Shown here: piece by piece, positions 20,830 to 59,190 of the stretch
Position numbering within the stretch: position 1 is the first letter of the stretch
Layout of the letters: every line of letters begins with the position of its first letter
From: an uncultured delta proteobacterium
GTDB taxonomy: Bacteria; Desulfobacterota; Binatia; UBA9968
Direction of reading: 5' to 3'
DNA: 64,000 bases
Assembly (NCBI GenBank): GCA_963760795.1
Contig: CAVXEP010000022.1
Location: 1 to 64,000, forward strand
Position numbers and translations under genes: made by a program
The notes under the pieces: generated by a model
The model's database searches: none
What the model saw: only the letters and a program-made list of their open reading frames with translations
What the model was told of the DNA's origin: nothing

Positions 20830-21987
20830 ATGAACTCACAACCTAACATCATCAGCGCCGTCGATCAGGTCATCGAGCCACCGACGCTTTGGACCGAGCG
20901 GTTGTCGAAGGCGAAGTTCGGCGCGCGTATTCCCCACATCGAACGCAGCGCCGACGGCGTTGACCGCTGGATTGTCGACGGACGAGCCTATGCGCTTGGA
21001 CAATCCGCCGATGTCGGCGCCCTGTTGCTCGACCGCGTCGCCACGGCGAAACAGTGGGACGACATCCCAAACGCAGCTTACGATCCCGCGGCGCGCCTCA
21101 AAGCGATGGACGAAGATGGCGTCGGCCACAGCGTGTTCTATCCAAGCCTCGCGGGATTTTCCGGAGAACGTTTTGGCGCCCTCGCCGATCCCGAACTAGC
21201 CCTCGCCTGCGTGCAAGCCTACAACGACTGGCTCATCGATGAGTGGATGCACACAAGCAATCGTTTCATTCCCCAGTGCGTCGTACCGTTGTCGCCCATC
21301 GACGCCACCGTCGCGGAAATCCGCCGTGCCGTCGGCCGCGGCCACCGCGGCGTCATTTTCCCCGCCGCGCCCATGCAGCTTGGCGCCTTGCCGCACATCA
21401 ATGACGCCGATTACGATCCGGTATGGGCGACATGCCAAGAGCTAGAGGTGCCACTATGTTTCCGCGCCGGCTCGACACCGGAATTATTTCAATTTCCCAT
21501 GCCGCCAAACCTGGCGCCGGAGTTGGCCGCGGCGATGCAGTCGGCGACGCGCTCGGCCAGCGCGGTGTTCGATCTCACCAACATACTTTTCTCACGCATT
21601 CTGCTGCGCTTTCCCAAGCTCAAAGTCGTTTTCGCCGGGAGCACCATCGGCTGGGGCACATTCTTACTCGAATATGCCGATCACCAATACGAGCAAGACC
21701 ACTGCGACTATCCGTTGAAACCATCGGAAATGTTTCATCGCCAATGTTATCTGACCGCCTGGTATGACCAAGCTAAGATCAATGCGCCGCATATCGGCAT
21801 AGACAACATTCTTTGGTCGACCAACTTTCCAGCGGCGGATTCGAGCTGGCCAGACACACTAAAGCATGTGACAAAAGGCCTGGCGGGCATGAGCGACATT
21901 GAGCAGCGGCAGATTCTGTCGGGCAACGCGGCAAAACTGTACAAGATTCCCGAAGTCAATTTAGCGGCGCAACGCGGGAGTAAGTAA
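20830..21987 (+). CDS. Amidohydrolase_2 paralog lacking metal ligands
   Basis: Aligns by eye with 19537 but has ISAVDQ, CFRAG, FAGSTIGW, WSTNFP. Confidence 0.8.
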   Translation: MNSQPNIISAVDQVIEPPTLWTERLSKAKFGARIPHIERSADGVDRWIVDGRAYALGQSADVGALLLDRVATAKQWDDIPNAAYDPAARLKAMDEDGVGHSVFYPSLAGFSGERFGALADPELALACVQAYNDWLIDEWMHTSNRFIPQCVVPLSPIDATVAEIRRAVGRGHRGVIFPAAPMQLGALPHINDADYDPVWATCQELEVPLCFRAGSTPELFQFPMPPNLAPELAAAMQSATRSASAVFDLTNILFSRILLRFPKLKVVFAGSTIGWGTFLLEYADHQYEQDHCDYPLKPSEMFHRQCYLTAWYDQAKINAPHIGIDNILWSTNFPAADSSWPDTLKHVTKGLAGMSDIEQRQILSGNAAKLYKIPEVNLAAQRGSK

Positions 21988-22967
21988 TGCGACGACTACC
22001 TGGAATATCGCTACTGCTTGGCATGTTTATATTTATCACCACAGGGCGGGCTCACGCCCAGGTGGCCCTCAAGATGGGCTATAGCGGTGCCGGAGTCGCG
22101 CAGAGCCTGTATAACACCATCGACCGGGCCGGCCTCTGGGCGAAATATAATCTCGACGTGAAAGCGATCTACTTCAACAGCGGCGCGCTGACCGTGCAAG
22201 CCTTGGTCGGCGGCGACATCGATCTGACCGACTCCAATATACCGACCATGCTCAATTTGAAAGCCGCCGGCGTTCTTGACGTGCGCATGATCGCCGGCTG
22301 GATGAATCGCATCACGCTGAGCTTTCTCGCGCGCAAGCCGATCAAAGCCCCCGCCGACCTCAGGGGCAAACGACTCGCCATCAGCCGCTTCGGCGCATCC
22401 TCCGACTTTGTCACTCGCATGCTGCTACGCTATTGGAAACTCGATCCGGAAAAAGACGTGACGATCATCCAGTCGGGCGGCAACGATTCCCTGCGCATCG
22501 CCGCGTTGGTCGCCGGCCACATCGACGGCGCATTGATCGGCACCTACGAGTTGCCGAAGATTCTCGAAACCGGCTGCTGCGTCAACCTTGCCGACCTGGA
22601 GGATCTACCGATCGAGTACGCGCGCTTCGGCGTCATCGTGCCGACGGCTTCGCTTAAGGCCCGGCGTGAAATTTTTCGCAGATATCTAGAGGCGCTGGTC
22701 GAAGGAATTTACGTCTTTAAAACACGGCCCGAGCTGCCCATTGCCGTGCTCAAACGGGAAGGCATCAAGGATGCCGAGGGCGGCCAAAAGAAAATCGCCA
22801 ACGTGCTGATCGATTTTCCTGTGCCCGATGAAAAGGCGGTGCAGACGGCGCTCGATTCCATCGGCACCCCCAAGGCGAAACTTGCCCAGGCGAAAGACTA
22901 TATCGATAGCAGTCTCTTGGAGGAGATCAAAAAAAGCGGCTTCTTTGAACGGCTGCATGGGAAATAA
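21987..22967 (+). CDS. SsuA/NMT1-like substrate-binding protein (GCC type)
   Basis: Signal peptide; ISRFGASSD; paralog of 26834. Confidence 0.85.
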   Translation: MRRLPGISLLLGMFIFITTGRAHAQVALKMGYSGAGVAQSLYNTIDRAGLWAKYNLDVKAIYFNSGALTVQALVGGDIDLTDSNIPTMLNLKAAGVLDVRMIAGWMNRITLSFLARKPIKAPADLRGKRLAISRFGASSDFVTRMLLRYWKLDPEKDVTIIQSGGNDSLRIAALVAGHIDGALIGTYELPKILETGCCVNLADLEDLPIEYARFGVIVPTASLKARREIFRRYLEALVEGIYVFKTRPELPIAVLKREGIKDAEGGQKKIANVLIDFPVPDEKAVQTALDSIGTPKAKLAQAKDYIDSSLLEEIKKSGFFERLHGK

Positions 22968-23127: not shown

Positions 23128-24228
23128 ATGCCGATGGCGGCGCAAAATGAATTTATCTTGAATCCGTACTTGGGTTGGCAGCGCGAGCAAGGTATTCCGA
23201 TTCACACCGGCTACTTCGTCGAAGATCTGCGCACCGTCGCAGTCGGGTACTGGAAGGAGCGCAATGCTAATGGCGCATTTATCAATCTGTCCAATGCCGT
23301 GGTCAATGACGCCGTGGTGCTGGAAATCCCGCGCGGCGAAAAGACCCATCCGCGCCGCCAGGTGTTCGACGAGTCGGTAATGGTCGTGGCCGGCCAAGGC
23401 GCCACGTCCATGGGGTATCAAGATGGCAAGAAGCGAACCTTCGAGTGGCAACAGGGCAGCGTGTTTGCCATCCCGCCCAATGTGTATTACCAGCACTACG
23501 CTATGGACAAGCCGGCGCGATTGGTTTCCTGCACTTCCGCGCCGCTTTACATGCAGCTGTTCAACAACAACGACTTCATCTTCAATTGCGATTACAAATT
23601 TCTCGACCGCTTCGCCGAAGAAGAAAATTATTTCGCCGAAGCGTCGAACCTGCTCGCAGGGTTCAACGGCATCGAGACCAACTTCATCGCCGACGTGCGC
23701 CGGTGGTTCACCCGCGAGAACGTCTACGCCCTCGAAGAAAAGGGCGGCTTCAAACAGAGCCGCGACCGCGCCCAGGATGCCTACAGCATGCGCGTGCGCT
23801 TCGCCAAAACGATGATGATTCTCCATCTCTCCGGCTGGTCGGTGGGCACCTATAAAAAAGCTCACCGTCACGGCCCCGGCTTCACCATCGTCATACTCGA
23901 CGGTGCCGGCTTTTCTTTCATGTGGGAGGCGGGCAAGTCGCGCGAGCGCATCGACTGGCAAGCCTGGAGTATGTTCGTGCCGCCGGCGATGTGGTACCAC
24001 GAGCACTTCAACACCAGCGTCGAACCGGTGCGCTTCTTGGCCTTTCACCCGCCCGGCATGTTGGCATACCCCGGCTGGTCCGGCGAAGGCGAACATTTCA
24101 TCGGCAAGGGACCGAACCAGATCGAGTACGACGACGAAGATCCAGAAATTCGCGCCGCCTTCGAGGCCGAGTTGGCGAAGAACGGGTTGACTAGCAAGAT
24201 GAAACCGGAGCTTTATCGAAAAACCTAA
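23128..24228 (+). CDS. Bicupin protein (gentisate-dioxygenase-like superfamily)
   Basis: FEWQQGSVFAIP, KKAHRHGPG, WYHEHFN. Confidence 0.8.
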   Translation: MPMAAQNEFILNPYLGWQREQGIPIHTGYFVEDLRTVAVGYWKERNANGAFINLSNAVVNDAVVLEIPRGEKTHPRRQVFDESVMVVAGQGATSMGYQDGKKRTFEWQQGSVFAIPPNVYYQHYAMDKPARLVSCTSAPLYMQLFNNNDFIFNCDYKFLDRFAEEENYFAEASNLLAGFNGIETNFIADVRRWFTRENVYALEEKGGFKQSRDRAQDAYSMRVRFAKTMMILHLSGWSVGTYKKAHRHGPGFTIVILDGAGFSFMWEAGKSRERIDWQAWSMFVPPAMWYHEHFNTSVEPVRFLAFHPPGMLAYPGWSGEGEHFIGKGPNQIEYDDEDPEIRAAFEAELAKNGLTSKMKPELYRKT

Positions 24229-24240
24229 TTACGTTAATGA

Positions 24241-24319
24241 GGTTCAATACGTTCAACTCATTTCCGGAAACCTCCGAAAACGGTTTGAACTATTTGAACG
24301 TTTTGATCGGCTTGAACTC
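24241..24319. repeat. Inverted GTTCAA/TTGAAC nonamer element
   Basis: gttcaatac gttcaactc...ttgaactat ttgaacgtt ttgatcggc ttgaactcc. Confidence 0.8.
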
Positions 24320-24337
24320 CGAAGGAAGGATTGAAAG

Positions 24338-25747
24338 ATGCTTTACAACGATTTACGCGGCTGGATGCAAAAGGTCGACGAGTTCGGCGAGTTGCGCACC
24401 GTCGAAGGTTGCGACTGGAAATATGAGATGGGCGCGGTGGCGGAAGTTTACGCGCGCAATCCGCCCTATTCGGCGATCCTGTTCGACCAGATCAAGGATT
24501 ATCCGGCCGGCCATCGGGTGCTCGTCGGCGTGCACCATCAGTCGCTCAAGCGCCAGTGCCTGACGACGCATCTGCCCCTCGATTACGACCGCAGTCGCTT
24601 CATCCAAGCTTGGCGCCAGCGTTTGAACAACCCGACCTATATTCCGCCGCGGGTGGTCGACAGCGGTCCGGTGATGGAAAATGTTTACGAAGGCAAGGAC
24701 ATTGACCTGTTGTCGCTGCCTGTGCCCCATTGGCACGAAGGCGACGGCGGCCGCTACATGGGCACCGCCCATCTCGTCATCACCCGCGACATGGACGAGG
24801 GCTGGGTCAACATCGGCTGCTACCGCGTCATGGTGCACGACAAAGATACCCTGGCGCTTTACATTTCGCCGGGAAAACAAGGCCGCATCATCCGGCAAAA
24901 ATATTTCGATCAGGGCCGCCCCTGCCCGGTGGCCATCAGCTTCGGCGACGATCCGCTGCTGCTCACCGCCGCGGCCAACAGCCTGCCCTGGGGCAAGTCA
25001 GAATATGAATATGCCGGCGGCATCCGCGGCCAAGCCATCGACGTCGTCATCGGCAAACACACCGGGTTGCCGATTCCGGCGTTTTCGGAAATCACCATCG
25101 AAGGCGAATGTTATCCGGACAACCAACTCCCTGAGGGCCCCTACGGCGAATGGACCGGCTACTACGCTAGCGGCGAGCGCACCGAGCCGATCATCAAGGT
25201 GAAGCGCTTGATGCACCGCAACAATCCGATCCTCACCGGCGCCCCGTCTTCGCGTCCTCCCGCCGGCTCGGACGACAACCTGGTGCGCTCGGCGTTCATC
25301 TGGGATCACATGGAAAAAGCCGGCGTGCCGGATATTCGCGGCGTCGCCTGTTTCCAAGGGCGCTTTTTCACCGCCGTGTCGATCAAGCAGCGCTACCCCG
25401 GCCACGCCAAGCAAGCCGGCTTCGTCGCGGCGCAATGCGGCGCCGGCGCCTATTTGGGCCGTTACATCGTCGTCGTCGATGACGATATCGACCCCTACGA
25501 TCTCAATGATGTCACCTGGGCCATGTGTACGCGCTCCGATCCCCAGGCCGACACCGACTTCATCCGCCGCGCCTGGAGCGGCCCCCTCGACCCGGTGATC
25601 CCGAAAGATAAGAAAGGCTTCAGCAGCCGCGCCGTCATCGACGCCACCCGGCCCTACGAGTGGATGAAGGACTATCCAAAAGTCTCCGGATCGAGTGCGG
25701 AGATGAAAGAGTTGGCAGTGAAGAAATATGGGAAGTTTTTTTCGTGA
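24338..25747 (+). CDS. UbiD-family (prFMN) decarboxylase
   Basis: DGGRY, NIGCYR, EGPYGEWTGYY, VVVDDDIDP, IDATRP. Confidence 0.92.
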   Translation: MLYNDLRGWMQKVDEFGELRTVEGCDWKYEMGAVAEVYARNPPYSAILFDQIKDYPAGHRVLVGVHHQSLKRQCLTTHLPLDYDRSRFIQAWRQRLNNPTYIPPRVVDSGPVMENVYEGKDIDLLSLPVPHWHEGDGGRYMGTAHLVITRDMDEGWVNIGCYRVMVHDKDTLALYISPGKQGRIIRQKYFDQGRPCPVAISFGDDPLLLTAAANSLPWGKSEYEYAGGIRGQAIDVVIGKHTGLPIPAFSEITIEGECYPDNQLPEGPYGEWTGYYASGERTEPIIKVKRLMHRNNPILTGAPSSRPPAGSDDNLVRSAFIWDHMEKAGVPDIRGVACFQGRFFTAVSIKQRYPGHAKQAGFVAAQCGAGAYLGRYIVVVDDDIDPYDLNDVTWAMCTRSDPQADTDFIRRAWSGPLDPVIPKDKKGFSSRAVIDATRPYEWMKDYPKVSGSSAEMKELAVKKYGKFFS

Positions 25748-25793
25748 GGCGTGAGGGGTAAGGGGTAAAGCGTTTCGGATCCGAACTCCTTAC
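25743..25793. repeat. Heptamer hairpin: left arm, core and start of right arm
   Basis: cgtgagg cgtgagg ggtaagg ggtaaag - ttcggatccgaa - ccttacc. Confidence 0.8.
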
Positions 25794-26800
25794 CTCCACT
25801 CTTGGACCGCGTACATTGCTTTTGTACCGGACAGCTATTGCATTGATTGCCCCACTCGATGCGATAGTACTCGGTTCCCATATAGTTATCTTTGATGCGG
25901 CTGCACTGCGTGCTGAGCTTGCCCTGAGGACAAACCGCCTGGCGCTCGTTGATATCGACATGGAACGCATCGCTATTGTAGGGTCCCTTGTGAGGATCGG
26001 GACGCGTCGGTCCTAATAACTCCATGCCGTTTTGTTCCGCCTGCGTTAAGGTGTGCTCGGTCACATAACCTGCATCGGTGTAGATCGCCCGGGGTTCGAT
26101 CTCATGGTGCGCTTGTTCTCTTGTGAGCGTCTCGGTCAAGCCAGCCTTCTCGTCCTGGGCCGCTTCGACGGTCAGCATCTCGGTGATGAAATGGTCGGTG
26201 GGCTCGCCCTTTTTCTTGATCGGTTGTTGAGGATCGACAGTCTCGGTTACATGCACCTTGTAGCCGATCCATTGCTTGCTCCTCTTATCGGCATAATGCG
26301 CATCGGAATCATGGGGGTTCTGCACCGCGCGAGGCGGTCGCTTGGGGGCGAGCTCAAGCTTTCCGTCGACCATCTCAAACTGCTCGCCAAAGACTCGCCG
26401 CAATAGTTTCACTGCTTCACGTCCAGCGAGCTTAGGATCGTTTCCGTCTAGCCACTCCAGCAGCTCTCTCATGTCTTGCCCACACTGCCGATAGCGGCGG
26501 TCGCGCTCGGTCTTGTTTAGCCGCCAATCCAGTTTGCTCTCTACATACAGTTCCCACAACCTGTCCCAAAATTCTGGCTGCTTTTTCCTCCCCACTTTTA
26601 CTTTCAAATCCTCCAACGCCAAGCGCAGCGTCTCTATCGCGCACTCCAACAAGCTCATCGCCTTGACGTACCCCACGATATGCGTGCTATCGAGCCGCTG
26701 CTTGCCCTTTCTCTTCACCAATCCCAGCTCCACCAGCAACTTAACTATCCCGTCAAAGATCATCCGCTCGACTTTGTTGTCTTCCAACCGGTCGCGAAAA
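25793..26800 (-). mobile_element. Internal fragment of an IS1182-like DDE transposase (no IS ends)
   Basis: FRDRL, LDSTH, GYKVH, DAGY, CPQG..C..CP..C; the N-terminus and the final catalytic Glu segment are absent. Confidence 0.8.
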
Positions 26801-26820
26801 CTCACGCCTCACCCCTTACG
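26801..26820. repeat. Heptamer hairpin, remainder of right arm
   Basis: ctcacg cctcacc ccttacg, complementary to units at 25743-25770. Confidence 0.8.
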
Positions 26821-26833
26821 AAAAGGAACAAAG

Positions 26834-27805
26834 ATGCTGCAAGCCAAGTATTTACTACCGAGCTTATTCGTAGCGCTGCTCATCGCATCACCCACCCCCG
26901 CCCAACAACTCGTCCGCGTCGGCTACAGTGGCACCGGCGTGGCGAAGAATCTGCACAAGATCATCGAGCGCGCCGGACTGTGGAAGAAGCGCGGCCTCGA
27001 CGTCCGGCTGATTTATTTCACCAGCGGCGCGACCATGGCGCAAGCGATGGTCGGCGGCGACTTGGACGTGGCCGACTCCGACGTACCGGCGATGCTCAAT
27101 GCCGTGTCCGTCGGCGCGTTAGATGGCAAACTGATCAGCGTCTATATTAACCGTTTTCCCTTCGCCTTCGTCGTGCGCAACGATATCAAGACGCCGGAAG
27201 ACTTAAAGGGCAAACAAGTTGCCATCAGCCGCTTCGGTTCGTCATCAGATGTCACCACACGCATGCTGCTGCGCCAATTCAACCTCGATCCGGAAAAGGA
27301 CGTGCGCATCATTCAAGCGACTGGAACGACCCGCGTGCCCGCCATGATCGCCGGGCAACTGCACGGCACATTGCTCGGCACCTACGACGTGCCGATCATC
27401 ACCGATTCCGGCTGCTGCCGCGTCATGGTCGACATGTTGGAGCTACCCATCGACTACGCCCGCTTCGGCCAGGTTGTGCCGACCCAATTCTTGCGCAGCA
27501 AACGTGAACTCTTGAGCAAATTCGCCGAGGGATTGATCGAAGGCATTTACGTCTTCAAGACCAATAAAGAGCTGGCGATGTCAATCCTCCGCGCCGAAGG
27601 CATCAAAGGCCCCGAGTACAGCTACCCAAGAGTCGCCGCCGCCATGCGCGAACGCCCCATCCCCGAAGCCAAAGGCGTCCAAGCGGTCATGGATTCGGTC
27701 AAATCGCCGAAGTCCAAACTGACGCTTGCAAAAGATGTGATGGACGGAAGCCTGATCGAAGAAATCGACAAAAGCGGGTATATTGCAAAGTTGTATGGAA
27801 AGTAA
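26834..27805 (+). CDS. SsuA/NMT1-like substrate-binding protein (GCC type)
   Basis: AAGGA RBS; signal peptide MLQAKYLL...PTPA; ISRFGSSSD. Confidence 0.85.
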   Translation: MLQAKYLLPSLFVALLIASPTPAQQLVRVGYSGTGVAKNLHKIIERAGLWKKRGLDVRLIYFTSGATMAQAMVGGDLDVADSDVPAMLNAVSVGALDGKLISVYINRFPFAFVVRNDIKTPEDLKGKQVAISRFGSSSDVTTRMLLRQFNLDPEKDVRIIQATGTTRVPAMIAGQLHGTLLGTYDVPIITDSGCCRVMVDMLELPIDYARFGQVVPTQFLRSKRELLSKFAEGLIEGIYVFKTNKELAMSILRAEGIKGPEYSYPRVAAAMRERPIPEAKGVQAVMDSVKSPKSKLTLAKDVMDGSLIEEIDKSGYIAKLYGK

Positions 27806-27834
27806 TCTTGAGGGTTTTCTAAACTAATAAGGCC

Positions 27835-28065
27835 ATGGCGGAATCGCAGGATCTTCTGATGTTAGAGTTTCTCTCGTGGGTAGCGAGCCGCCCGCGCACC
27901 TACGACGAAGCCATGGAAGCGTGGCAGAGCCACTGTCCGAGGCAGACGATTTGGGAAGACGCGATTATCGAGGGGTTAGTCGAGATCAATCGACAACCTA
28001 ACGATTGCGAGGTAGTGTTAACACCGCGGGGCGAAGCAATCCTCAACGCGAAAGAACGCGACTAG
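27835..28065 (+). CDS. Small hypothetical protein (possible winged helix)
   Basis: FLSWV..RPRTY.EAMEAW.SHCPR..WEDA...LTPRG. Confidence 0.65.
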   Translation: MAESQDLLMLEFLSWVASRPRTYDEAMEAWQSHCPRQTIWEDAIIEGLVEINRQPNDCEVVLTPRGEAILNAKERD

Positions 28066-28106
28066 AGGAATCATCCGAACAAATTGCCAGCATAAGTTTA
28101 GACTCA

Positions 28107-28967
28107 ATGCCCCCCTCCACCCTTCTCTTCGGCGCCACGTCGATCCTCGGCTATAGCATCGCCAATTTATTCCCCGAAACGGTTTTGCCGTTTGTCACCC
28201 GCGCCAACCGGGCGAAGATTATCCGCCGATGGCCGGTGTTGAATCTGGAAGATCCGGCGTGGCCGGCGACCGTCTTTGAACAGCACCAACCCGATTTATT
28301 CATCCAGTGCCATGCGGTGTGCGATGTGCCGCGCTGCGAGGTCGCACCCGACTGGGCGCGCGAAGTGAATATTGTTTATCTCAAACGGGTGCTCGACGCA
28401 TTGCCGGACAAGACGCGGCTCGTCTACGTCTCCTCCGATCACGTGTTTGGCGGCGACGGTGTCTATGATGAAGACTCGCGGCCCTGTCCGATCAGTGTTT
28501 ACGGTAGAACGCGGGTGGAGGCCGAAGCAATGGTTCTGGCCAGGCCCGGCTCGTTGGTCATCCGCGTCGGTTTGGCGATCGGTCCATCGCCCAATGGTCG
28601 CACCGGCCACTGGGATTGGCTGCGCTATCGCGTTGGCAAGAATCTGCCGGTGACCATAGTTCACGACGAATATCGCTCGGTGGTTTGGGCCTATGATTTG
28701 GCATTGCGCGTGATGCGCATGGCAGAGAGCGGCGCAGCCGGCATCCGCCATGTCTCGGCTACTCGAGTAATTTCGCGCATCGAACTGGCGAACCATCTGC
28801 TGACTCTTTTTGGCGAACCGGCGAGCTATGAGAGCGAGAGCCGCCACCAACGCTCAGCGCCCCATCTTGGCCGCGTCGAATTGGCGAGTATCCACAGCGG
28901 CGAGTTATACCAACCGCTCCAATGCGTCTTGGACGGTCCCGACTTGATGGGCCGGTATTGCGATTGA
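28107..28967 (+). CDS. RmlD-like extended SDR
   Basis: FGATSILG, YVSSDHVFGG, YDEDS.P.PISVYG.TR (catalytic YxxxK is YxxxR). Confidence 0.8.
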   Translation: MPPSTLLFGATSILGYSIANLFPETVLPFVTRANRAKIIRRWPVLNLEDPAWPATVFEQHQPDLFIQCHAVCDVPRCEVAPDWAREVNIVYLKRVLDALPDKTRLVYVSSDHVFGGDGVYDEDSRPCPISVYGRTRVEAEAMVLARPGSLVIRVGLAIGPSPNGRTGHWDWLRYRVGKNLPVTIVHDEYRSVVWAYDLALRVMRMAESGAAGIRHVSATRVISRIELANHLLTLFGEPASYESESRHQRSAPHLGRVELASIHSGELYQPLQCVLDGPDLMGRYCD

Positions 28968-55194: not shown

Positions 55195-55645
55195 TGGTTT
55201 CTCCTCTGCCGACGTTTTTGCCAAACCAGGTGTTGCGAAAGTTTGCTTGAGACATGGGCGACCGCGTCGCGCCATGACTAAAGGCCGCGGCCACTCAGCG
55301 GCCCGTGCTTGTTTACCGTCACGATAGCTTCAACATCTGCCTGATAGCACCGCGCCATGAAAATTGTCAATCCGGCAGTGAACGTTTCTGTATATCTAAG
55401 AATAGCCGAGAAACTCGAGCCATTTCACCTTGGCAGCAAAACGCCACAAGGCGCGGCGATTTCTAATATCGCGCGCGGCTCGACTGCGGGAATTGGTCGG
55501 AAATTGTTATTGCAGGCAATGACGGCGAGGATATCCGCTGCGTCGGTCTGTTGGATGCGCTTGGCCAGGTAAGGCCCAAAGGCCGACGGTAATTTCCACC
55601 GTCAAACGTTCGAGGGCGCACCGCGGCAGTGCCGGCGAGCTGCGA

Positions 55646-56494
55646 TCAAGTCTGCTCTCGCTTCTCCCTCATGTGGGTCAAGCAACGAAGAAACAGATAA
55701 ACTTCGGTCGGGTTCTTGAGAAATCGAGCGGCTACGGTCTTTCGTGGCGTTTCCTCGACTAGAATAGCCATGCCTTTTTCCGCAATGGCTGCAAACGCCG
55801 CTTCATCGGTGCGGTCGTCACCAATATAGATCGGCAATGCGGTTGAAGCATAATGTGCGAGGATTTGCGTTATAGCATCTGCTTTCGTCATGCCTGTCGG
55901 TTTCGCTTCAATGACGTCTTTGCCGGCCAAAAGCTCTAGTTTGACGCCTTGCTGCTGATATTCATGGACCGCACGGACAAACTCCTGGCGCGCCGCCAAT
56001 GCTGTGTCGCCGTCGGCCCGCCGGAAGTGCAGGGCCAGAGCAATGCCCTTGTCTTCCACGATGATTCCATCAGCGTCCGCCAGAGCCCGGCGCAACTCTT
56101 CGTGCAAGCAACGTAGTGTGTCGACAATCACCCGGTTCGGCCATGACCGATTGAACGTGCCGTCGGGCGCCGCCCACTCCAAGCCGTGGCATCCGACATA
56201 ATAAATCTGCTCTAAACCGATGAGCCGCCTCAGCTTGTCAATGGGACGGCCACTGACGATTCCAACCGAGCATCCGGGCAAAGAATGAAAATCTTGCAGC
56301 CAACGTCTTCGCGGCTCGCTAAACAAGACATCGGCTGGAGTTGGCGCGATTTCGGCCAGGGTGCCGTCAAAGCCAAGAAACACAAATATTTCAGGCGCCT
56401 CGATAACTATCTGCCAAAAATCTTGATCATGAAAGTTTAATCGTTGGGGAATCCCACCAGGTTGAAGCGATTGATTTATGCTATCGGTCGTCAT
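55646..56494 (-). CDS. otsB: Trehalose-6-phosphate phosphatase-like HAD protein (motif I Asp to Gly)
   Basis: FLGFDGTLAEI, VSGR, HGLE, EDKG..LHFR, IGDDRTDE.AF. Confidence 0.8.
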   Translation of the reverse strand: MTTDSINQSLQPGGIPQRLNFHDQDFWQIVIEAPEIFVFLGFDGTLAEIAPTPADVLFSEPRRRWLQDFHSLPGCSVGIVSGRPIDKLRRLIGLEQIYYVGCHGLEWAAPDGTFNRSWPNRVIVDTLRCLHEELRRALADADGIIVEDKGIALALHFRRADGDTALAARQEFVRAVHEYQQQGVKLELLAGKDVIEAKPTGMTKADAITQILAHYASTALPIYIGDDRTDEAAFAAIAEKGMAILVEETPRKTVAARFLKNPTEVYLFLRCLTHMREKREQT

Positions 56495-56531
56495 GCAGAT
56501 GCCCTCTCGACCGCTGATTTCGACCCCCCGT

Positions 56532-57121
56532 CTAGCGTCTGGGTCCCTGGGCCGTGATCACAAACCTGTCGCGGCGATTTTTTTGCCGGCAATCTTCGGA
56601 CTGCGATTGGCAGGCCGGAATCTCCTCGCCGTAGCTTATTGTGGCGATTCGATCCGCCGAAATACCGAGGCTCGTTAAATAGTCTTTGGCCGCTTGCGCT
56701 CGCTTGGCACCGAGAGCCAAATTGTACTCATTGGTGCCGCGTTCGTCGGAATGACCTTCGATTTCAACGCGTGCTGTTGGATTTTTCTTGAGCCAGTCGG
56801 CGTTGGCGCGCAGAATCGCCCAGTCTTCGGTGTCGAGTTCGTACTGGTCGAAGTCAAAGTACACTTCTCTTAACCCGCCATCACCCGACCTCAGCGCGGC
56901 ATCGCCTCCCCGCAGCGCTTCTAAGCTCGATTTGAACGCAAAGTGTCAGGGGTCAAGCCTGGAGACTCTAGTGCGCCCGACTGCGACTGCGGCGTGAATG
57001 GTCGGGGTGACGGTACACTTATCGATTTCTTTGCCGCAGGCTCAAATGTTGAACAGCCGGTCGTACCCATCAATCCTGCGATCACAAGACCGATAATAAC
57101 GTCCGCATAGCGATACCTCAT
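56532..57121 (-). CDS. pal: Pal-like peptidoglycan-associated lipoprotein (frameshift near 56940)
   Basis: Lipobox-like TTGC; YFDFD, EGHSDERGTNEYNLALG.KRA, SYGEE, NRR. Confidence 0.82.
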
Positions 57122-57696: not shown

Positions 57697-57918
57697 GGCC
57701 CAGAAAAAGTAATGCCTTTGATCTTGCTGGACTTTTAACAGAGTGAAGTGGCCGGGCTATCGATGGAAGGATTTTCCCGGGTAAGTGAAAGGGATTCCCC
57801 CTACAACCTGCGTCAACCGAATTGTAAAAAGGGATTTCGCAGAGTTCGCCTAAAGCACCGCGCAATGCGCCGCACCTAACGTTATTTGAATGAGTTTCAC
57901 CAGCGGGAGGGTGTAAGA

Positions 57919-59190
57919 TTAAGACGGTTCTTGTTCAGTTGCTTTTTTTTCCGTGGACTGCTGATTCAACGGCAAATGAATGGTAAAGGTAGTTCCCTGT
58001 CCAGGCTGGCTTTCCACCTCAATCCGCCCGCCGTGAGATTTTACAATCCTCTCGCATATCGGCAGACCCAATCCCATGCCACGCCACTTCCTAGCGGTGA
58101 AAAAAGGCTGAAAGATCTTGGGCAGAGTGTCCGCGTCAATGCCAAACCCGGTATCCGCCACCGCGACGGTCATCTGACCGGACGAATTTTGCTTTGCTCT
58201 CAGGGTTAACTTCCCACCTGCTGGCATGGCATCCATCGCATTGAGCGACAAATTCACCAGCACCTGCTGCAACTGCTGCGGGTCGGCATAGATTCGCGGC
58301 AGTTCCGGCGCGATTTCCTGGACGGCTTGGACGTCTTGCTTGTACAGCCGGGTCGAGATCATTTCCAACGTTTTGCTAATCGTCTCTTGGACATCGATCA
58401 ATATGAAATCCGTGCTTTTGGGCCGGCCGAATTCCAAAAGGTCCCGGACCATTTTTTCACAGCGCTTGGTCTCTTCAGAGATGATCTGTATGGGACGATA
58501 GCTCGGATCGGCGGGGTCCATGTCGGCTAAAAGACCTTGAGCAAAACCAAGGATAATTCCCAGCGGGTTATTGAACTCATGGGCCATCGAAGCCGATAGC
58601 TCGCCGACCGAGACAAGGCGGCCCGAGGCGATCAGTTGCTCCTCCAGTTCTTGGGCTTGTTTACGCAGCTTCTGCTCGCTTTCCCGCAGCGCTTCCTCCG
58701 TCCGTTTGCGATTCGTGATATCGATAATCGACACGAGGACGAAAGTTACGTCATTGATTTGGATTGGGTTAAGGCCGATCTCGACAGACACTTCTGATCC
58801 GTCCTTGCGCATGCCAAACAGATCACGGCCCGCTCCCATAGGGCGAGACTTCGGAGAGAGAAAAAACCCGGCCCGGAAGTCAGCGTGTTTGCCGCGAAAG
58901 CGCGCCGGCACGAGCGCGTCAATCGACTGCTGGAGCAACTCCTCTCGTGGGTACCCGAAAAGGCTCTCGGCGTGGGCATTGGTTAAGACGATTCGCCCAT
59001 CCTTGCCGACCATAATCATCGCGTTTGGAGAAGCCTCAACCGCCAGGCGAAAGCGCGCCTCGCTTTGCTCTAGCGCTTGCTGCTTTATCCGCTCATTCAT
59101 GTGGAATAGGTCCACGAACGCAGCGACCTTGGCTTTCACCACTTCCGGAACCACCGGCTTGAAATTGTTATCCACTGCGCATGAAAACAC
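57919..59190 (-). CDS. PAS histidine kinase with an eroded N-terminal receiver domain
   Basis: AVD..FKPV receiver tail; PAS; HEFNNPL, NAMDAM, DTGFGI, GMGLGL. Confidence 0.85.
   Translation of the reverse strand: MFSCAVDNNFKPVVPEVVKAKVAAFVDLFHMNERIKQQALEQSEARFRLAVEASPNAMIMVGKDGRIVLTNAHAESLFGYPREELLQQSIDALVPARFRGKHADFRAGFFLSPKSRPMGAGRDLFGMRKDGSEVSVEIGLNPIQINDVTFVLVSIIDITNRKRTEEALRESEQKLRKQAQELEEQLIASGRLVSVGELSASMAHEFNNPLGIILGFAQGLLADMDPADPSYRPIQIISEETKRCEKMVRDLLEFGRPKSTDFILIDVQETISKTLEMISTRLYKQDVQAVQEIAPELPRIYADPQQLQQVLVNLSLNAMDAMPAGGKLTLRAKQNSSGQMTVAVADTGFGIDADTLPKIFQPFFTARKWRGMGLGLPICERIVKSHGGRIEVESQPGQGTTFTIHLPLNQQSTEKKATEQEPS

Follow-up and report, generated by a model that had tools for sequence, protein, structure and literature searches.

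Experiments in Sinorhizobium meliloti have shown that Ku and LigD can mediate the capture of a DNA fragment at a chromosomal break, and the authors considered that pieces of mobile DNA from the same species might integrate in this way (PMC6379672, which also cites filler-DNA capture in yeast and mammals, a related process). Mycobacterial inverted repeats are reported to trigger nucleolytic processing and break repair (PMC3519483), and insertion sequence (IS) copies without target duplications have been described at rearrangement junctions, where the IS is proposed to enter existing breaks (PMC11708052). Here we describe a 64,000-nucleotide stretch of DNA (the window; bases 1-64000 of contig C22 of G000, a metagenome bin of 6.58 Mb in 35 contigs) in which an internal piece of an IS1182-family element lies in the arm of an intergenic hairpin, between a ubiD-family decarboxylase gene and a gene for a periplasmic substrate-binding protein. 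The insertion is most likely a one-off end-joining scar and a natural instance of a process known from experiments.

The locus shares with the S. meliloti capture events the homology-free ligation of unrelated DNA, with small end losses and no target duplication, and the S. meliloti host and the window genome both encode Ku and LigD. The two differ in that an I-SceI break and an electroporated fragment were used in S. meliloti, whereas a natural hairpin break and a resident IS are presumed here. The IS copies described at rearrangement junctions likewise represent IS DNA at a presumed break with no target duplication, but they are whole elements at large deletions or duplications, whereas the window carries a fragment in an otherwise unchanged locus. 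No natural capture of an IS fragment at a bacterial break turned up in a literature search that saw its sources in part, and one may still be in print. If the insertion is real, it would be a natural footprint of Ku/LigD break patching, so far shown mainly by experiment, with a chewed-back copy of the cell's own insertion sequence as the patch. Such scars would mark chromosome break points in the wild, in this case at a structured intergenic repeat, and would provide a route to end-joining events in long-read metagenome genomes.

An IS1182-family fragment in a hairpin arm

The ubiD-family gene (24338-25747, plus strand; Pfam UbiD E 6.7e-62, UbiD_C E 5.8e-29) is followed in the same orientation by a gene for an NMT1/THI5-type periplasmic substrate-binding protein (26834-27805, plus strand; Pfam NMT1 E 3.8e-15, NMT1_2 E 9.3e-13), the second such gene of the neighbourhood. 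The left arm of the hairpin (25743-25770, plus strand) is composed of four tandem 7-base units (CGTGAGG, CGTGAGG, GGTAAGG and GGTAAAG), the first of which includes the TGA stop codon of ubiD (25745-25747). The loop of 17 nt (25771-25787) has its own small palindrome, CGTTTCGGATCCGAACT, and is identical in the congeners G019 and G013. The first unit of the right arm, CCTTACC (25788-25794), is separated by the insert (25795-26800) from the remainder of the arm, CTCACG, CCTCACC and CCTTACG (26801-26820), in which the first unit is one base short; the insert thus interrupts the right arm after its first 7 bases and leaves the loop untouched. An earlier description of this DNA, made from its letters without database searches (the sequence-only reading), was correct in every main point. 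It had recognised the insert and its right limit and had set its start at about 25793, two bases before the exact start at 25795. It had also proposed that removal of the insert rebuilds a compact hairpin, and the sequence without 25795-26800 does fold at -42.6 kcal/mol, relative to a mean of -21.8 kcal/mol for 300 shuffles (z -6.1), none of which folded as well.

A whole-genome search with 25780-26815 returned five places, namely the window itself and four others (C30:165072-166077, C30:155283-156288, C5:20944-21949 and C4:153644-154649), all four of which match query positions 16-1021 exactly, at 100% identity. Identity among the four places extends past the match by 411 bp at one end and 422 bp at the other (in one copy, 216 bp); relative to the full element, the window piece lacks these 411 bp and 422 bp. 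The full element is 1839 bp long, with inverted ends of 19-20 bp that begin GGTTCTGCTGAAAAACCCC, and the window piece corresponds to its positions 412-1417, on the minus strand (1006 bp). A BLAST search with the full element identified three copies at 100% over 1839 bp (C30:164650-166488, C5:20522-22360 and C4:153233-155071), a fourth with 99.9% identity across 1831 bp that carries a one-base deletion and is damaged at one end, a remnant of 87 bp from an end of the element, and the 1006 bp of the window. The search for intact copies and the mapping of breakpoints, both proposed in the sequence-only reading, therefore gave three intact copies, one damaged copy and two exact limits. No further copy of exactly this 1006-bp unit was found at a new site in the genome, one of the five places being this unit and the other four being full copies. 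As the three full copies are mutually identical over 1839 bp, the element is young and probably active. The full copies are flanked by short AT-rich direct repeats (read by eye).

The 538-aa transposase of the full element matches the IS1182 family model NF033551 (E 6.6e-78, 262.8 bits, which is just under the 270-bit cut-off), with Pfam domains DUF772 (residues 56-127) and DDE_Tnp_1_6 (residues 401-522). Of these 538 residues, the window piece encodes 113-447 on the minus strand (limits by arithmetic), retaining only the last 15 residues of the DUF772 match and the first 47 of the DDE_Tnp_1_6 match, and a Pfam search with the piece returned only DDE_Tnp_1_6, positions 1-48 of 125 (E 5.6e-5). 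Residues 1-112, the 5′ leader and a complete catalytic domain are absent; the sequence-only reading had recognised the insert as the middle of an IS1182-like transposase, without its N-terminus and final catalytic segment. No terminal inverted repeats were found in the piece: end-to-end and end-to-inverted-repeat local alignments scored 4-5, whereas 2000 pairs of 30-mers drawn at random from the IS averaged 5.1 and the true inverted-repeat pair scored 20. The piece is therefore not a complete IS1182-family copy, lacking the full transposase, the inverted repeats and a target duplication, and it is incapable of transposing or of encoding an active transposase. It lies antisense to ubiD and the binding-protein gene, both on the plus strand, in agreement with the orientation first reported.

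Positions 24900-27700 were used as the query against 40 relatives (a tally that includes the unpublished G004). In the closest of these, G019, the flanks of the insert are collinear with the window, 95% identical on both sides and abutting, and G013 and G022 are alike. In each of the three, the spacer contains this hairpin with an uninterrupted right arm and a loop that is the same or nearly so; in G013 this arm reads CCTAACT, CCTCACG, CCTTACC and CCTTACG, with a full 7-base CCTCACG where the window has CTCACG. The intact hairpins of the relatives fold at -28 to -43 kcal/mol. In a 226-nt contig from the soil run X1 (depth 2.7), only one C separates the counterparts of 25794 and 26801, and the 9 differences of this contig in 180 nt indicate that it comes from a relative. 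The empty sites in G019, G013, G022 and the X1 contig establish that the ancestral site was a complete hairpin. Comparison of the window with the full IS gave 0 bases of microhomology at either junction, and comparison with the X1 contig and the G013 unit showed that one target base was lost and none was duplicated. The trinucleotide CTC, noted earlier at both junctions, is present as letters, but the TC on the left belongs to the stretch identical to the IS, so its occurrence on both sides is a coincidence and not a target duplication. No heptamer-like sequence is found at the IS break points. The insertion thus exchanged one base for 1006 bp. The insert is very young, matching its source at 100% identity and having no counterpart in any of the relatives.

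Probable repair of a broken hairpin and competing origins

The missing ends and the missing duplication exclude normal transposition, consistent with the earlier judgement that it does not explain the piece: the full copies have 19-20-bp inverted ends and flanking repeats, and the piece has neither. The insert is instead probably a repair scar, left when the IS piece was ligated into a broken hairpin by end joining. Direct end joining is favoured because the joins are blunt, with a one-base loss and no microhomology, duplication or inverted ends. A double-strand break would have formed in the right arm, 7 bases from the loop, and a linear piece of the resident, recently active element would have been ligated into it by non-homologous end joining involving Ku and LigD, at the cost of one target base. 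The genome encodes Ku (E 1.6e-48) and, beside it, a LigD of 532 aa with phosphoesterase (E 6.9e-45) and primase-polymerase (E 2.4e-91) domains, as well as two ATP-dependent ligase loci, each matched as two pieces (4 pieces). The donor was probably an excised, linear IS copy chewed back by ~410-420 bp at each end, given that the copies are identical, and so look active, and that the missing 411 bp and 422 bp are nearly equal. Only 12 of the 834 possible splits of the missing 833 bp are this even (by arithmetic, post hoc), and such near-symmetric trimming is consistent with resection at both ends of an excised, linear element. Chance placement in a hairpin is unlikely since the 23 hairpins of the genome, at ~75 nt each, make up ~0.03% of its 6.58 Mb (by arithmetic). 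The earlier proposal that the hairpin served as a break or capture site for foreign DNA remains the best reading of the origin of the insert, the ancestral hairpin being empty in the three relatives and the X1 contig. Co-transcription of ubiD with the gene downstream, should it occur, would yield ~1 kb of antisense transposase RNA as a by-product.

Several points weigh against a repair scar. The filled site is known from one assembly, and among 24 sequencing runs compared none contained half of the sampled words (best share 0.27). Runs X1, X2, X3 and X15 yielded only contigs of relatives, none of which spans a filled junction, the stretches they leave uncovered being uninformative, and an exact scan of a metagenome collection for the 30-nt left junction gave 0 matches. 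SbcD is the usual hairpin-cutting nuclease, and no SbcD homologue scored above the cut-off in this genome, which is 89% complete (best 39.4 versus 77.65 bits). Breakage of this particular hairpin is something that we infer, and because the event is single, the observations on its position in a hairpin and on the symmetric trimming are both post hoc. Finally, end joining and other forms of homology-free ligation leave junctions that are indistinguishable by sequence.

The first alternative is an assembly or consensus artefact, in which the assembler or a chimeric read placed the 1006 bp in a genome that in reality has an intact hairpin. The source is a metagenome bin with completeness of 88.9% and contamination of 6.15%, in 35 contigs, in which unmerged contig-end overlaps or strain variants of 3.7-8.6 kb at ≥97% identity remain (C24:1-8568 with C17:135172-144804, and C25:185642-189403 with C26:27176-30931); hairpins are known trouble spots for polymerases, and the lack of left-junction matches and of source reads in the runs compared can also be counted in favour of an artefact. 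However, two false joins would be needed that leave and re-enter one locus within one base, the 0 bases of microhomology at the joins offer no k-mer path to a graph assembler, and a random ligation chimera would not come back to the same place. The flanks are moreover collinear with G019 at 95% on both sides, and the assembly resolves four identical 1.8-kb repeats within contigs, pointing to long reads and a many-read consensus. An artefact is therefore unlikely.

A replicative template switch of the break-induced or fork-stalling kind, in which a fork or repair polymerase stalled at the hairpin, copied 1006 nt of the IS and jumped back, is likewise unlikely. Hairpins stall replication, the insert is a perfect copy of a resident sequence, and the event returns to the same place, all of which a switch would account for. 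Such switches rely, however, on short microhomologies of a few bases wherever the polymerase jumps, and here there are none at either junction, nor is there any heptamer-like sequence at the IS break points.

The heptamer hairpin family and its contents

Arrays of at least three in-phase NGTNARG units number 22 in forward and 26 in reverse orientation in the genome, compared with 0 and 0 in a reversed-genome control. At 21 places a forward array is followed by a reverse array within 10-95 nt, forming an intact hairpin, and only two distant forward-reverse arm pairs were found, one at the ubiD site and one at C25:182610-183110. The genome thus has 21 intact hairpins and 2 with DNA between the arms, of which only one holds mobile-element DNA. 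Heptamer units are present in all five congeners searched (2 to 102 matches each; control 0). The heptamer-armed hairpin family is genus-wide, and the ubiD hairpin is a gene-less member of it.

The second filled hairpin (C25:182610-183110; 811-1311 of locus L029), of the same heptamer family, lies between histidine-kinase and response-regulator genes and contains 452 bp with a frameshifted gene for a 23S_rRNA_IVP four-helix-bundle protein (PF05635, E 2.7e-22), unique in the genome. The survey of other hairpins for mobile-element fragments that the sequence-only reading had called for therefore found no other case in this genome. The kinase stop codon lies within the first heptamer, as for ubiD. 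Inverted arrays of short tandem units enclose four of the six PF05635 matches in the genome, and for a fifth, on C19, arrays are found on the downstream side (all by eye). Apart from the C25 gene, 23S_rRNA_IVP genes beside or between inverted tandem arrays are located at C32:416198-416512, C31:40508-40825, C31:29990-30286 and C19:326276-326461, and the tandem unit differs at each IVP locus, examples being TGGAGTR and GTTCAA-type units.

Cassettes resembling 23S rRNA intervening sequences and carrying an IVP (S23p) gene have been described (PMC4990558). The window hairpin resembles them in its arms of about four inverted tandem 7-base units, and one hairpin of the same family here, that on C25, holds an IVP gene between its arms. 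The window hairpin differs in being located between protein genes and not in rRNA.

Whatever loads IVP genes into heptamer-armed hairpins might also have loaded the IS piece. The frameshifted IVP gene of the C25 hairpin and the arrays seen at five of the six PF05635 matches are in keeping with such cargo uptake, but the IS piece, an arbitrary fragment joined with a one-base loss, occupies an arm of the hairpin instead of its loop, and we know of no enzyme for loading of this kind, leaving this origin improbable.

IS elements are found in repetitive extragenic palindromes (REP/BIME), which they use as targets (PMC1525189). Those cases and the window have in common mobile-element DNA inside an intergenic palindromic repeat. 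The REP/BIME cases are complete elements placed by their transposase, whereas the window holds an end-less internal piece with no duplication. Aberrant transposition, either of a mini-element with cryptic internal ends or of a full copy that entered the hairpin and then lost both ends, could draw on this targeting of palindromes and on an element that looks active, yet it is very improbable. The two ends of the piece are no more similar to each other or to the true inverted repeats than random pairs are (scores of 4-5 versus a mean of 5.1), one base was lost with no target duplication, the full copies lie in AT-rich targets and not in heptamer arms, and it is very unlikely that two end deletions would have left the arm lacking only one base.

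With respect to the targets of the full element, three of the four full copies have GGTCAGGC 9-10 nt ahead of one inverted end, together with the AT-rich flanking repeat. This 8-mer is not enriched genome-wide (204 found versus 201 expected). It is possible that GGTCAGGC with an AT-rich flank represents a target preference of the IS, and an uninterrupted look-alike of this target occurs near C9:2023, just upstream of a Y1_Tnp gene (C9:1600-1926). A link between the heptamer arrays and REP/RAYT systems was rejected, as the genome has 3 Y1_Tnp matches and a heptamer array lies within 5 kb of none of them.

The sequence-only reading had further suggested a trap-and-silence mechanism, in which hairpins catch pieces of mobile elements and read-through antisense RNA damps the transposase. 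In its strongest form, heptamer-armed hairpins would be recurrent, perhaps enzyme-made, break-and-fill sites that take up loose DNA, pieces of active IS elements included; since the sites lie within operons, captured pieces would be transcribed, and those in antisense orientation would damp the element. Were this so, they would be a bacterial counterpart of a piRNA cluster in Ku/LigD-bearing soil bacteria, but we consider it highly improbable. The piece is antisense to the flanking genes, all of which are on the plus strand, and four sense copies are available as possible targets. There is no T-run after the hairpin and a plus-strand scan calls no terminator there, making read-through plausible. 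Control of the IS10 RNA-OUT type and piRNA-cluster-like traps similarly have antisense transposase sequence in a host transcription unit, but the window differs from these in having no overlap with a translation start and a single trapped piece, known only as DNA.

Recurrence is what such a mechanism would predict, and IS DNA is present in only one of the 23 hairpins of the genome and follows the gene in none of the 18 related ubiD loci from public genomes. No other split hairpin occurs among the matches listed for the five congeners (61 matches, mostly from G019, fall outside that list). A candidate split hairpin in G013 (C1:303838/305141) was rejected, as it consists of two separate hairpins around an ordinary binding-protein gene. 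A single case says nothing of an orientation bias. Antisense control of transposases is known to act at the start region or 5′ leader, and the piece lacks residues 1-112 and this leader. Identity of 100% to its source and absence from the nearest relatives also indicate that the insert is too young for selective retention. Trap-and-silence is thus hardly credible, and the finding does not indicate a new defence or silencing system.

Other observations on the hairpin arrays concern their effect on reading frames and their neighbours. The units (GTAAGG, GTGAGG and GTTAGG) contain TAA, TGA or TAG, in 25743-25770 as in all arrays of the family, and with a period of 7 three consecutive units close every reading frame on either strand of the hairpin; genes often terminate within the first heptamer unit of such arrays. 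Thirteen of 115 heptamer arrays lie within 150 nt of a repeated stretch, and these repeats, with the exception of those at the two arrays of the ubiD site, are paralogous binding-protein genes or duplicated contig ends, not pieces of mobile elements. Five paralogous stretches of ~1 kb share 92-94% identity (C20:145485-146478, C14:62815-63810, C19:122764-123745, C13:242730-243649 and C35:16731-17639) and lie in a binding-protein-like open reading frame (ORF), as judged by eye at C20; in the C20 and C35 paralogues a heptamer array is found no more than 15 nt past the end of the repeat.

Neighbouring genes and other features of the window

Upstream of ubiD lie a gene for an NMT1-type binding protein (21987-22967) and a cupin-like ORF (23128-24228), and a gene for an RmlD-like reductase (28005-28967) lies downstream of the second binding-protein gene; all three are on the plus strand. 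A mechanical open frame of 377 aa on the minus strand (25672-26805) starts in the right arm, spans the entire insert and terminates within the 3′ end of ubiD, antisense to that gene; it is a by-product of the insertion. Scanning of both strands in 24200-28000 gave 0 promoter-like sites near this frame. The same interval contains 5 terminator-like sites versus 3.9 expected, including a weak stem with a T-run on the minus strand (26807-26833) that was made by the junction of the right arm and the IS piece and that, being one of 5 versus 3.9 expected, is probably meaningless.

Elsewhere in the window, 55519-56719 and 57854-59164 are at least 97% identical to parts of C12:370112-375169, which can be attributed either to a segmental duplication or to the presence in the bin of another strain's copy of this region. 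The depositor labels of related records are Candidatus Binatia, 'uncultured delta proteobacterium' or Syntrophobacter sp., and their sources are soil-type metagenomes. Across the 18 related ubiD loci (L030-L047), the spacer between ubiD and the binding-protein gene is changeable, being occupied in different relatives by the heptamer hairpin, by either of two further types of palindromic element, or by a small ORF. In L035 and L042 this small ORF begins MKFSE, and its product may be HicA-like.

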